In this document: positions 25,601 to 31,600 of the stretch, piece by piece
Layout: every line of letters starts with the position of its first letter
How positions within the stretch are numbered: the stretch's first letter is position 1
Assembly (NCBI RefSeq): GCF_044324875.1
Contig: NZ_CP172185.1
Direction: 5' to 3' (one strand)
Length of the DNA: 64,000 bases
From: Escherichia coli
Lineage (GTDB): Bacteria; Pseudomonadota; Gammaproteobacteria; Enterobacterales; Enterobacteriaceae
Position numbers: made by a program

Positions 25601-28600
25601 CCCGGCGTCCCGGGTCACGCACGCGGGTCTGGCAGGCAAAGAACGGCTGAAAGCCTTCCCGCTGCAGGCTTTCCAGTACGGTGATGGTGGGGATGTATGT
25701 ATAGTTCCGGCTCCGGGAGGTGTGCTTATCTTCCCCGAAAATCCCGGGCACATGGTGCATCAGCTCTTCACGGGTCAGCGGACGGTCACGGCGTATCTGG
25801 TTCGCATAACCGAAACGACTGGCTAATCGCATACTTTGCTCCTTATCGGTGGTTAATATTTACTGATGTAATAAATGAAAAAGCCGCGTCTCCCGGGGAA
25901 GACGCGCCTGATGGATGAAATGAATGAGGGTTTACCGAAGTCCTTCAGCATTGAGGTGAAGCAGCCGGAAAGGTGTTACCTGGTCATCGACGGGTCAGGT
26001 CAAAAAGCGGGGACATTCAGAACAGGCGATCCCACAGTGTGACCAGCAGGCGGATAATGCGATCACGGGCTTTGCGCAGAAGCTGCAGCATCCATGCCGG
26101 AAAGCTGAACCGGGCAATGGCCGCGTCAAAGCTCTGGCCGATGGCGTCACCAAAAGCCTGCTGTGCGTGTTGCTGATCCTGCGCAGTGCGCTTTTCATTC
26201 CGGATATGCGAATAAACCGCGCTGGTTGCCTGTGGTGGCAGGGCGTGGATCATCAGAGACACAAATGCCGGAAGATTCCAGCCGGCAGGAGCGGCTATGG
26301 GGAGTACCGGAAATGATGAAGGGAACAGGGTTGCCACCCGGGCTGTCACCGTCGCCAGTGAGAGTTCCTGCTGACGGGATGGCGTGCTGCTCTGGTTGTT
26401 CCATTCTTCAGCCGGGTGGATGCGATCGGCATGGCTGAGAACAAACAGAAAACGCGAGGGATCGGCACCTTCATTCAGTAAAAACTGATGCATGGCAATA
26501 TCGGCAGCATACGCACGTTCATCAGCCCGCAGGATCCAGATAATCAGATCCAGTTCGGGTAGTAACTGACGGTAAAGTGCCCGGTATTCCTGATCATGCT
26601 GTGGTGTTTCGCCAGTGCCGGGCAGATCGACGAGCGTCATTCTGCGTTCACCGGGCTGAAAGGTAAGACGATGAGCCTGACGGGTGCAGCCGTTCAGCGG
26701 ATGCGTGGCGCAGACACGGGACTGAAAAATGGCATTGCACAGGCTGCTTTTTCCGGCACCGGATTTACCCATAATGCCAATAACGGGTTCGTAATGAATG
26801 ACGCTGTGAAGATGTTCAAGGATTTTCTGGCGTATTTCTTCAGGAAGAAAGGTCAGATGTGACTTTACGTGTGCGGAAAGGGAAGAATGGCTGAATGACA
26901 TACCGGTATCCTGTTGATTTCACTGAACCGGATCACATTAATCCGGTCTCTCAGTCAGGTAATATGGACGTGAAAAAATCTGGAGTGATAAAGTGTGGGA
27001 GGTGAGATGACGGCACAACAAAGTGATGCGCTGCGTGAGATTGCTAATAAAGCCAGAGTTACCACCATTCTTCAGAGTAAGGTCTGGAAAGATACCCAGC
27101 GAATACTGAAGCGCAGCGGACTCGTGTACGGAAAACGGTCAGAGCCGTTTGATCCGGAGAAACATTTTGACCTTCAAACGGTGCGTTATCTGTATCAGCT
27201 TAACATGATGGCACTTGAGTTAAGGGAAGACACACAGATTGAGGTTGAGGTGGGCCACTGGCATCGCATGACAGGTCAATGTTTATCAATTCGTGTCCCG
27301 CCTTTTATGCTGATCCCGCGTCATATCCGGAGAAAAGTGGATGGATTCAGACAATCAGAAGGTAAAACAACAAAAAAACCGACTCAACCGTTCACGGGCA
27401 GTTTGTATAAGATTTTGCTCAGGGATATTGACCCGGATAAGCTGGATGCATGGTTTGCTGAACCGCCGATGACATGGCAGGAAGTGCTGGAGGGGAGGCG
27501 TGTCACTGATTTTAATCCATGGGCTCTGTCTTCGCCTATTTGCCGTTCAGCATCCCCGACGTTTGAACTTTTTTACCAGGAATATAAGCGACTGGGATTA
27601 AAATCTCTTTTTGTATCAGGGGTAATGTTTGAACAATTTTTAACAAAACTGAATGTCAGAAAACATGAGTACGGGGTTGAATCGCAGTTACTGGAATCAC
27701 TGGGAAATGTGATGTTTTTCATGTTGCTTTATGACATTGAAAATATGGCAAGGTTTACAGAAGCACTTATGAACATTAATGAGCAAAGTGGACATTCGAA
27801 GGGAAAAGGGAAAACGCGAACAGAGATAATGCTGGAATATATCAATTCATATATCCTCGATGTTCATGAAAACTTCCTTTGTTCTTCAAAAGAAAGGTAC
27901 GAACAGCATAAACGCAAAAACAGCAGTAAAAAGAAAAACGGTTCTGGTGGAACGCATTAACGGGAATAATCCCCGGTTGTTTTCTGCATAAACAGACGAT
28001 CAGCTGATAAGATGAGTTTATCCAGTATTTCAGCCTGAGTAAGATTATTCTTTTTTGCCATTTTCCGGAGTATATTCCTGGCTTCCGGAGAAATCAGGGC
28101 ACTTATCTGTACCCGGCGATCCACTTTTTCATGCCGGAACATTTTCTGATAAGAATTTTTCATGCGTCTGATTAAATCATTCTGACGCTGAACAAGATCT
28201 TTCAGATGCTGGTGTTCAATAGTGGAAGGAAGTATATTAAAAAATACACAACGGACAGAAACTATTACGGCGAGACGGGCTTCTCTGTCGTTACAAGTTT
28301 TAAAATTCGGAAGAACAGGACAGTAATGAATGTTTCCAGAATTATGCATGCACAAATCAGAATCATGCCTGGACAAATATTCCCATGCCCATTTAATATG
28401 AATCCTTTGATGATCAAGCCATTTCATGGGATTCACTTTTTCAGCATACGACCATAAAAAACGAAGAGTAGACAAGAATTCCGAGACGGTTAGTGCGTCG
28501 ACAATTTTTCTGTACTCCTGGAGCCATTTATTTATCATAATAATCCGGGATTTATCATCACCAGGTAAAGAGTAATAACCAAACAACCTGGTATACAGGT

Positions 28601-31600
28601 TACTCTCGTTTTGAGACTGCTCCCAGGACAATGGAACTCGTGTGAAGTTGTCAGGAACATGAAATATAAACCACCATACCCAGAACGTGGCTACACGGTT
28701 GGTTTTTATCCAGTCCGGAACTGCTTCACTTTCTGAATTATCGGTCTCAACAACTCCTGATGTATTATCCGGATAATGCTCAGCCCCAAAAAAACCATCA
28801 ACAGGGTTATCTGGTGAATACACAGACATTAACTCCATGGGTATAAATGTATAGCCATCTAAAGAATCAAATCCTCTCTTACTTTCAACTCCTCTGTAAG
28901 TCAATTCTATCTGAATTCTCTTTTAACGACACATCAGAAAAAATGCAACACCCACATTGGTGATTTTCATTTGCTTACAAAACCATACTTTAAATTACAA
29001 ACAAATAATACACACACCTCGGATAAAATCACGTCGAAATTTAATTATTTTAAATAAATAATGCATTAAAAATATCCATAAATTATCCAGCTGAATATTT
29101 TTTATATGAAAAACATGCTGTCGTTCGTTGTCTTGCGTATTCCGCTCTATTCGATCACGGATTGGCATCGAAGTCCGATCAGCGATTCGCATCCATTCGA
29201 TCAACCGGGAACTTAACTTTTTCTACCGCTTTTTAACGCGTTTTTTCGCTGCTTTCCACTACCGGGGGATTTTTCCTCAGTGACTCTCCCTGAAGGACCA
29301 CTCGGTGTGAGTTATGTACCAGTCTGTCCAGGATGGCATCTGCTGTTGTTGGGTTCTCCATCAGACCATGCCATTTATCTACCGGGAACTGGCTTACCAC
29401 TATCGTGCTGCTTTGTCCGTAACGATCCTCTATGAGCTCCAGAAGGTCATTACACTGGGCGTTACTTAACTGTTCCAGCCCCAGATCGTCCAGGATTAGA
29501 ACCTGTATTTTTTGCAACTGTTTCAGATATTTCAGCCAGCTGCCATCAACACGTCCCTGAGCCAGTTGTTCCAGTAATCGCCCGGTTCTACAGTACCGGA
29601 CGCTGTGTTTCTGTCGACATGCCTGTTCGCCCAGCGCATTGGCTATCCAGCTCTTGCCACATCCTGTCGGACCGGTTATCAGCAGGTTTTTCCTGTGGGT
29701 TATGTAGTGGCCGTTCAGCAGTTCTCTCATCTGTTCAGCCCGCAGACCTCTTGAGGCCGGATAGCGCAGCCCTTCCGGTGTTGCCTGGTATTTCAGGCCG
29801 GCATTTTTTCTCAACCGTGCCACACGGCTGTTTTCCCTGCTCAGAAGCTCGTCATCAACCAGCAGCGTCAGCCTTTCCTCGAACGACAGTTCGTCGTAGG
29901 TCTGAGGCGTTTCCCGCTGCCGTATCAGGCTCCCGGCCATCGCCGGGAGTTTCAGTTGGGTCAGTTTGTTTAACAGGTTATCACTCATACTGTTGTTCCT
30001 TCTGTCAGTGGTAGTAGCCCGGACCACGCAGGTTTTCATGCTCTGAAGCATATGCCGGATGTTGTTCGCCCTGGCGGGATAATGGAAGCTCCAGGTTCTC
30101 CCGATGGTGACGCAGCAGATTGTCGATAAAGCGTCTGTCAGGGGCGTTATAGTGCAGGGCAACGTAACAGGCCTTTTCCAGCCGTTCCGGGCCGTATTTT
30201 TTCTGAAGTGCCAGCAGCCCCAGAACTGCACGATAAGCCAGTTCCGGATGGGGTTTTGCCTTCAGCATGGATTCAACCACCCGGCCTGTGGACGGGCCCG
30301 TACGTTTTCCCTGCTCGATCAGGCGTTCCGGTGTCCATGTCCCGTGCTGCCGGTGGCGCTCTGGCATGTGAAGCGGATTGGTTGTGTGTTTATATTCATG
30401 TGTGCTGCGCGGATGTTGCGCCACACACTGCCCCTTGTGCCAGAGCTGTACCACCGACTGCCCCGCCTTCAGTGACAGACGCTGACCGACCAGTTCGTGT
30501 GGAACGGAGTACCAGTGACGGGCATATTCAACGTGGTAGTCAGGGCCAACCTTCACAGCTTTGTATTCCGTGTATTCATAAGGTGCCAGAGGCAGCGGAG
30601 AGAGTGCTGGCGCATCCAGTATGCGGAAGCGTTCTGCACGGGTTTGATTGCCGTACCCCTTCATTGGCCGGTTATTCATGTCTGTCAGTAACTCCCTAAG
30701 GCGCGCATTCAGCGCCCTGAGCGTGTGGAAGGTTTCATTACGGATGCGGGCAAGAAGCCATCGTTCAACGATGAGGACGCCGTTTTCTGCTTTTGGTTTA
30801 TCTTTAGGTTTGCGTGGTCGGGCCGGGATGATAACCGTGCCATAGTGCTCAGCCAGTGCCTGATAACTGTCGTTGATGACAGGCTCATATCGATCGGCCT
30901 TTTTCACTGCGCTTCTGAGGTTATCGGGGATGAGCAGCTTCGGTACGCCGCCCAGGAAGGTCAGGCAACGGCTGTGGGCATTTAACCATGACATCATGTC
31001 CTGACCTTCGCACGCTTCAACGTAGGTATAGTTGGACGCCCCCATTACGGCCACGAAGATTGCCACGCGGCGTATCTCACCGGTGTCCGGATTAATAACA
31101 GGAACCGTAGGACCACAGAAGTCGATAAAAAGCTTTTCGCCGGCACGATGCTCCTGGCGCATGGAGAGACGTCGCGTTTTTTTCCACTCCCGGTAGCAAC
31201 GGCAGAAGTGCGAGTATCCCATCGCTTTGTTACCCGCCTGTGCCTTGTATTCCATCCACAACAGTTGCCGCGTCACACCTGGTTTTCTCATTTCCGTATC
31301 GAAGTACAACATGTCAGGCATTACAAGCTCTGATGCAAAGGTGTCTTTGGGCGGAAAAATGAGTTTCTCCAGCGTGTCATGGGATATATCAGCAGGTAAT
31401 GGCCATGACAGAGAAGAGGCTTTGAAGCGGGCAAGAACCTCAAAAACGGTTGAGGCGCTGATGTGTAACGTCAGTCCGATACAACGGTTAGTCAGCTTCT
31501 TGTCGAACTTGAGCTGAAGGATCTTAAAACAGGTTTCCATAGTGCTCCTGGATTTTCTCTTTCTGGACATTGACGTCTCCACTGGTTTAAACACGGCAAT

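Follow-up and report, generated by a model that had tools for sequence, protein, structure and literature searches.

What are the two convergent, AT-rich genes that stand upstream of the GTPase gene in a CP4-like island of Escherichia coli, and what might they do for the island? The question arose in a stretch of 64,000 nt from contig NZ_CP172185.1 (assembly GCF_044324875.1), hereafter the window, to which all coordinates refer unless a locus handle (L001 and the like) is given. An earlier reading made from the nucleotides alone (the sequence-only reading) took the genes, here called A and B, for an accessory pair inserted at a variable position, perhaps with a role in defence or toxin regulation. 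Comparison across loci indicates that the pair is a fixed, fast-evolving backbone module of a widespread enterobacterial island family, not inserted cargo. As to function, the reading that we favour, tentatively and at slightly less than even confidence, is that A and B form an immunity-like regulatory switch of the island.

Gene A (27007-27960, plus strand) encodes 317 amino acids (aa) and was 100% identical to P0001 of E. coli; its ATG at 27007 is preceded by GGGAGGTGAG, with a Shine-Dalgarno sequence. Gene B (27957-28829, minus strand) encodes 290 aa, was 100% identical to P0067, also from E. coli, and has GGAG ahead of its ATG at 28829. These ATG codons are likely the true starts, the maximal open reading frames (ORFs) being 26995-27960 (plus strand, GTG start, 321 aa) and 27957-28904 (minus strand, TTG start, 315 aa). 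The two ORFs of ~315 aa described in the sequence-only reading therefore both exist, with 317 and 290 aa as their likely lengths, and its description of their convergence and composition was borne out. Both stop codons lie in a TTAA palindrome (27957-27960, no strand), which leaves zero intergenic room for a terminator; the 9 intact E. coli loci checked, as well as L015, all had this -4 bp overlap. No convincing terminator was found after A or after B, and scans for promoter and terminator consensus performed at chance level. A and B have a GC content of 0.430 and 0.401, and the 304 bp upstream of B one of 0.293, compared with 0.548 for the GTPase gene and 0.579 for the DUF932 gene in the flanks. 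Isoelectric points of both proteins were ~9-10 (A, 9.4).

A and B are real genes and not chance ORFs, because 22 loci, down to ~20-25% identity, keep both frames intact and in synteny. Ratios of nonsynonymous to synonymous substitution rates (dN/dS) were 0.35-0.78 for A and 0.22-0.77 for B, except for the near-identical A pair of L002 and L003 (dS 0.005); with frames, lengths and motifs preserved, this range indicates weak purifying selection or fast evolution. A functionless remnant, in which decaying AT-rich ORFs are silenced by H-NS and kept by hitch-hiking, would account for dN/dS of 0.5-0.78, the AT-rich composition, the nearby insertion sequence (IS) elements and the one locus at which the pair was truncated by IS1. 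We consider this very improbable, given intact frames, conserved length and motifs and confident predicted folds across 22 loci to ~20% identity, together with conserved cis-elements.

Using family hidden Markov models (HMMs), a B homologue was identified directly downstream of A on the opposite strand in 22/22 loci with a full-length short A, a set made up of E. coli loci and relatives ~25% identical. A contig profile scan with a narrower alignment confirmed 1 locus, the 22 loci having been assembled by other routes. The spacing between A and B ranged from -26 to +121 bp between lineages, always in convergent orientation. A profile search of 1.84 billion representative proteins recovered full-length A relatives at ~22-30% identity, and all 11 of the distant relatives that were looked up had, directly downstream on the opposite strand, a gene of 257-320 aa or a piece of one cut off by the contig end. 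Distant relatives of the pair came from Citrobacter and from metagenome or read-assembly contigs; by structure and sequence searches, family members were confined to Enterobacterales (E. coli, Salmonella, Citrobacter, Serratia and Limnobaculum). Within E. coli, a nucleotide search found A in about 740 of 5,426 complete genomes, and the A/B pair likewise in about 740, compared with GTPase homologues in 4409; a single genome held as many as 9 related GTPase islands and 3 copies of A/B. A was not found in 50,697 phage records (B was not searched there), and A and B were each present in 2 of 72,556 plasmid records.

The gene order in every intact E. coli locus opened was GTPase (minus), A (plus), B (minus), 1.6-2 kb without annotated genes, and a Gp2/YfjJ-like gene (plus), the last of which was confirmed in the window as a Gp2-like Rep gene at 34733-35464. 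The pair thus occupies a fixed junction, with a GTPase/WYL “moron” operon (GTPase, WYL regulator, DUF905, DUF932, the antirestriction protein ArdB, RadC and CbeA/CbtA) on one side and an AlpA/Gp2-like Rep module on the other. In L007, L012 and L015, alpA followed by the Gp2-like rep gene is divergent from B and 390-720 bp away. The pair is more tightly conserved than the GTPase, since two distant islands, L017 and L018, retain A/B and lack the YfjP-type GTPase gene; in L017 the A gene directly faces the WYL-regulator gene, and in L018 a transposase gene lies in between. Of the accessory-module proposal, the genuine pairing stood (22/22, always convergent) and the insertion did not, as the backbone position is fixed across Enterobacterales. 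The contents of the slot do vary, as the sequence-only reading had it, but among homologous alternatives: A/B cassette types, or a 407-aa A homologue (A-long) without B. A 2025 preprint describes such elements as uncharacterised, prophage-like or possibly satellite-like mobile genetic elements that encode an integrase, excisionase and HUH Rep along with a moron module of RadC, ArdB and CbtA; the A/B pair goes unmentioned in it (PMC12458937). In the Shigella SRL island, the four ORFs orf42-45 separate AlpA from the YfjP/YeeP GTPase; since 2001 they have been entered as “no similarity” or hypothetical (Table 2 of PMC6980539), and they may include the A/B pair.

In protein B, a disordered N-terminus (~aa 1-32) leads into a Trp-rich all-alpha domain, and a ribbon-helix-helix (RHH) forms the C-terminal part. 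The N-terminal domain (aa ~33-235; 28125-28733, minus strand) is the most variable part of the pair, and was modelled by AlphaFold2 (AF2) with a predicted local distance difference test score (pLDDT) of 76-94. It was only 48-73% identical where the RHH was 95-98% identical, and its conserved features are PxW, FWxW, ER…I..W, WL and WAWxY, with invariant R95, W137, W149 and E183; no fold match or relative was found for it. The RHH segment (aa ~240-285: RVQISALISPEARNILRKMAKKNNLTQAEILDKLILS; 27975-28112, minus strand) matched NF010256 (E 9e-4) and, across the whole domain, CopG (E 0.8), and PF10723 (RepB-RCR_reg) is precomputed on P0067-P0071. Among 18 members of the B family, PF10723 was detected in 2 at E<=0.001 and in 6 at E<=0.1, and RHH_1 in 5 at E<=0.1. 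These weak matches agree with one another and place the segment in the RHH superfamily by profile; the AF2 model shows an extended segment followed by two helices, that is, the ~45-residue strand-helix-helix fold, with structural matches to RHH domains. B is a new architecture within a known DNA-binding class, and A belongs to an uncharacterised family without a detectable relative. The RHH-like C-terminus noted on one protein and the lysine-rich tail on the other (A) were both confirmed.

RHH domains are common in antitoxins, and fast evolution, mosaic variable domains and AT-rich composition are features of conflict systems, so that a toxin-antitoxin (TA), abortive-infection or anti-phage defence pair, with the RHH protein as antitoxin or regulator and the other as effector, had to be weighed. 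RnlAB, located in the equivalent region of CP4-57 in E. coli K-12, was counted in its favour. Islands of this kind also carry defence cargo (PMC12458937). The genes themselves fit such a role poorly: A, B and A-long matched zero PADLOC families (PADLOC-DB v2, E<=1 or E<=0.1), and type II TA systems are by definition co-transcribed operons, which the convergent arrangement in 22/22 loci does not permit. Compared with type II pairs with RHH antitoxins (ParD/ParE, CcdA/CcdB, TacA/TacT), both proteins are ~300 aa, the RHH is C-terminal, and neither protein matched a toxin-like fold or family. A constant backbone junction sets the pair apart from patchy cargo. In contrast with typical defence genes, A is absent from the phage records searched and the pair nearly absent from the plasmid records, and A-long occurs without any partner. 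We regard this explanation as quite unlikely, and the defence or toxin-regulator role suggested by the sequence-only reading was not upheld.

Tandem units with an 11-bp period were found 60-260 nt upstream of B, after a (T)GCATGT box, with a unit sequence that differs by lineage. In the window, the upstream control region of B (29066-29122, minus strand) contains the box GACAGCATGTTTT (29110-29122) followed by degenerate AT-rich units of ~11-bp period, AATATTCAGCTG, GATAATTTATG and GATATTTTTAA. Type-1 E. coli loci carry AAATATT units. L005 and L023 have four GAATAGWT units at 11-bp spacing, which in L005 were the only matches in 10.7 kb, and 0/200 shuffles reached four. L001 and L002 have 3-unit chains (p<=0.015), L017 has a clustered GACNRTTH array with 11-bp phasing, and L015 has GAA[AC]TAGTT units. 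B of L015 is 24% identical to B of type-2 E. coli loci, yet the two have in common the RHH strand QIN[VI]K and GAA[ACT]TAGTT-like units, which fits recognition of the repeats by the B RHH. The repeats are likely, but unproven, to be the operator of B; we treat the operator as suggestive because the test for tandem-repeat chains was significant in only 4/18 loci (L005, L023, L001, L002), and not in the window.

Protein A is predicted to be a basic, all-alpha protein of an uncharacterised family. No match was found in Pfam, NCBIfam, PADLOC or PHROGs, PDB sequence-profile searches with three A alignments returned nothing, and there was no PDB or AFDB fold match beyond its own family. AF2 prediction of A from 27 close homologues gave a pLDDT of 48.6 and was unusable. 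A usable model (mean pLDDT 74.6; both cores mostly 75-94) came from an alignment in which A and B of 17 loci were paired through a Gly/Ser linker, with seven further rows of A and linker only. In this model A is all-alpha (pLDDT mostly 70-94) except for one small beta-hairpin just before IRRK(V/A)D(G/A)F. The corresponding motif I-R-R-K-V-D-G-F (aa 107-114; 27325-27348, plus strand) is the best conserved of A and invariant within E. coli, and R108, R109 and K110 are retained in homologues ~25% identical. When distant homologues were aligned, W27, K110, L133, Y134, E192 and F238 were invariant, and R108, R109, Q116 and R297 nearly so. The copy number of an RQS tripeptide varied right after IRRKVDGF, with GFRQSRQSRQSRQSRQSE in A of L003 (6108-7097) and GFRQSE in the window (27349-27360), an in-frame 9-bp tandem-repeat length polymorphism. 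Literature searches found no published characterisation of A or B. Remote-homology and structure searches gave no relative of known function for either protein and detected only the C-terminal RHH of B, in agreement with the earlier statement that neither belongs to a recognised family.

Direct repeats of 11-bp period next to an RHH gene are reminiscent of ParR/parC and of relaxosome accessory proteins. The pair could accordingly be a mobilisation or partition module, in which B, like TraY, NikA or ParR, would serve as the RHH accessory or centromere-binding protein on oriT/parC-like repeats and A as a novel relaxase or motor; the adjacent operon (ArdB, DUF932, RadC) resembles plasmid leading-region genes, and A has an invariant Tyr. 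Such a module would need a partner that A does not resemble. No P-loop/NTPase, actin, HUH or His-triad motif was found in the all-alpha A, nor any fold match to relaxases, recombinases or ParA/ParM/TubZ. An actin-, ParA- or tubulin-like NTPase partner, as in ParR/parC-type modules, is missing. The pair is also virtually absent from plasmids, and the island already encodes an HUH Rep. We rate a mobilisation or partition function as improbable. We also weighed the R-R-K…Y residues of A as those of a tyrosine recombinase or relaxase, and dropped the idea because no fold or motif supported it.

Across about 540 E. coli genomes, nucleotide similarity to the window broke off at codon 243 of A (query position 729). 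Between cassette types the N-terminal part of A was 60-80% identical, and the A C-terminus, B and the first 330-650 bp upstream of B, which are type-specific, fell to ~20-40% or could not be aligned; the distal non-coding region was common to the types. The type-specific segment of A (aa 244-317; 27736-27957, plus strand) ends in a Lys/Arg-rich tail (aa ~297-317). Identity of the A C-terminus (A_C) tracked that of the B N-terminal domain (B_N), with a Spearman coefficient of 0.87 in E. coli and 0.57 overall. The coefficient was 0.58 in E. coli and 0.34 overall for the A N-terminal part (A_N) against B_N, and 0.68 in E. coli and 0.25 overall for A_C against the physically adjacent RHH. By these comparisons, the A C-terminus (~75 residues), B and the B upstream repeats are swapped as one type-specific cassette, and the tracking of A_C and B_N fits an interacting, co-exchanged specificity cassette.

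About a quarter of the GTPase-bearing genomes matched only up to 76 nt into the intergenic region. Two such loci were opened (L019, 7502-8725; L020, 7503-8726), and in both the slot holds the 407-aa A-long and no B. A-long is a remote homologue of A (hhalign probability 94.7%, E 6e-8), with which it shares the motifs S.EWLNTQ..L.R, I.LPR.IRR and GGLY. It has an extra N-terminus of ~100 aa with a C-x4-C … C-x2-H motif, had no match in PADLOC, NCBIfam, PHROGs or Pfam, and is probably commoner in E. coli than the A/B pair. The extension fits a requirement of A for a nucleic-acid-targeting module, whether in trans or in cis.

The control region of A (26927-26984, plus strand) comprises an inverted repeat, ACCGGATCACATTAATCCGGT (26927-26947), followed by AGGTAATATGGACGTGAAAAAATCTGGA (26957-26984). 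The core motif AGGTAATATRGNCGTGARAWWWTCTGGA sits 43-50 nt before the A start codon and was kept in loci with proteins ~25% identical; TAATAT is a candidate -10 element. E. coli islands that differ in B type, or that carry A-long, had ~90% identity over the ~105-bp intergenic region upstream of A, and the promoter region was far better conserved than the flanking proteins. In the GC-rich inverted repeat the sequence changes, with position and pairing kept, and at 6/8 pairs both bases differ in at least one sequence. The promoter-like motif of A was seen in the window and in L004, L007, L009, L011, L012, L013, L016, L017 and L019.

A strongly conserved A promoter, whatever the B type, and an A form that occurs without B raise another explanation: that the genes are bound by tight synteny only, B being an autoregulated RHH regulator (CopG/CopB-like, of the Gp2-like Rep and island replication) and A an independent backbone protein. 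The resemblance of the B RHH to plasmid copy-control repressors agrees with such a role for B, and the invariant polar residues of A hint at an active site; A would then be a DNA-processing enzyme, or a nucleoid- or packaging-associated factor, using Tyr134 and R108-R109-K110, and we regard this as a serious alternative. Against independence, B is present at 22/22 short-A loci, A itself contains the cassette boundary, and its C-terminus covaries with B_N. The B-less A gains an N-terminal domain, which suggests compensation, and no fold or motif ties A to an enzyme class. On balance, separate functions were judged unlikely.

The switch reading was favoured because of four features taken together: an RHH protein with a putative type-specific operator of its own, a position at the excision/replication boundary, a head-on partner, and cassette types in genomes with several islands. 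The elements concerned are tRNA-associated integrated islands with a P4-type integrase, AlpA, a Gp2/YfjJ-like HUH Rep and the moron operon from the GTPase through CbtA. B would be an RHH repressor whose RHH binds the lineage-specific ~11-bp tandem array upstream of its own gene, resulting in autoregulation, and where alpA-rep is the divergent neighbour, B may also control the excision and replication module. A would be the cognate partner of B, expressed from a highly conserved promoter that stands back-to-back with the moron operon. Since A runs head-on into B without a terminator between them, the two transcription units are predicted to antagonise each other. B would probably be contacted through the type-specific C-terminal helices of A. 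Diversification of the cassette (A C-terminus, B and operator repeats) would prevent cross-regulation between co-resident related islands. Such avoidance of cross-talk would explain the AT-richness, mosaicism and fast evolution of the pair, and a pressure of this kind is plausible because one genome can hold up to 9 GTPase islands and up to 3 A/B copies.

Several points weigh against a switch. The case is one of sequence and model comparisons, and the structural model is a linker-joined A+B chain in which no A-B interface is open to inspection. The covariation of A_C with B is inseparable from simple physical linkage. Each RHH sequence match of B is weak on its own, the window array is degenerate (2 units, not significant), and the nearest gene divergent from B in E. 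coli is 1.6-2 kb off, across the non-coding region. B is unlikely to act type-specifically at the A promoter, because the inverted repeat and promoter are identical across B types and in B-less islands. The invariant Tyr, Lys, Arg and Glu of A would also fit an enzyme, and a dN/dS of 0.5-0.75 would also agree with constraint having relaxed as the islands decay.

A regulatory switch can be set beside several known systems. Like the RHH repressors CopG of pMV158, CopB/RepA2 of IncFII and Arc/Mnt of P22 (PF10723, PF01402), B has a ~45-residue strand-helix-helix and, as in the autoregulated members, upstream tandem repeats. Unlike CopG, CopB or Arc, B carries its RHH C-terminal to a ~230-aa Trp-rich all-alpha domain, is paired convergently with a conserved gene, and has its binding predicted from sequence. 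Satellite and phage immunity modules (SaPI Stl/Str, lambdoid cI-cro, P22 immI) are alike in their junction position between excision/replication genes and the rest, and in short divergent or convergent units of extreme diversity, type-specific operator cassettes and a GC content lower than that of the flanks. The geometry of a putative repressor gene divergent from excision and replication genes is present in L007, L012 and L015, and in E. coli the 1.6-2 kb of non-coding DNA lies between. A and B share no sequence or fold homology with Stl and CI, which are helix-turn-helix proteins, so that the analogy is functional only, with no inducer, helper phage or induction phenotype known here. Convergent-transcription switches (pR-pL of 186/P2; prgQ-prgX of pCF10) likewise have facing regulatory units without a terminator, from which transcriptional interference and antisense effects are predicted for A/B. 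In those systems promoters stand face-to-face over a short distance, whereas A and B are whole genes of ~0.9 kb that meet at their 3' ends; the overlap itself is not essential, because the A-B spacing changes between lineages. A fuller version of the switch was considered somewhat unlikely: A/B as the master switch of very common tRNA-integrated, HUH-Rep, possibly satellite-like islands that carry defence and virulence cargo among Enterobacterales, in which a Stl-like B senses a helper or host signal through its fast-evolving Trp-rich domain, a new-fold antirepressor or co-regulator A docks by its type-specific C-terminus, and the cassettes, 11-bp repeat operator included, act as “immunity groups” that let several islands coexist in a genome.

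The region between B and the Gp2/YfjJ-like Rep gene is non-coding, AT-rich (GC 0.37-0.40) and 1.6-2 kb long, with no ORF >90 aa (window, 28830-29133, 31779-~33300 and ~34607-34732; L001, 9908-11815; L004, 6689-8396). Conservation across the E. coli islands was 70-88%, and B-less islands also have the distal ~1.2 kb. No Rfam match was found in four related loci; the region could hold an origin, a long leader or a non-coding RNA. In the window it is interrupted by an IS21-family element (istA/istB; 29134-31773, minus strand; target duplications TGTCT at 29129-29133 and 31774-31778). This element lies 305 bp upstream of the B start and 11 bp past the GCATGT box, and truncates the upstream region of the module without being part of it. 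Three identical 2.64-kb copies were found in the window (606-3245, 29134-31773, and 62792-64000, the last cut), and recent transposition is suggested by the 5-bp target duplications (TTTGC and TGTCT) that flank the two complete ones. A second IS disruption of the same non-coding region is an IS3-family transposase ORF (33673-34563) just upstream of the Gp2-like gene. On the moron-operon side of the island lies a second, distinct IS21-family element (20394-22195; 340-aa IstA and 260-aa IstB, PRK09183-type). In L017, a TIR-domain gene was observed among repeated YagK/DUF7828 modules.

If A and B were merely a silent backbone remnant, the pair would be ordinary. Most E. coli genomes harbour islands with this backbone, which carry virulence, resistance and anti-phage cargo. 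The module, with an RHH protein bearing a new sensor-like domain, a partner of unmatched fold and associated cis-elements, would add two uncharacterised families to the regulators of mobile elements, and a conserved switch, if true, would be a handle on the induction and transfer of these “cryptic prophage-like” islands.

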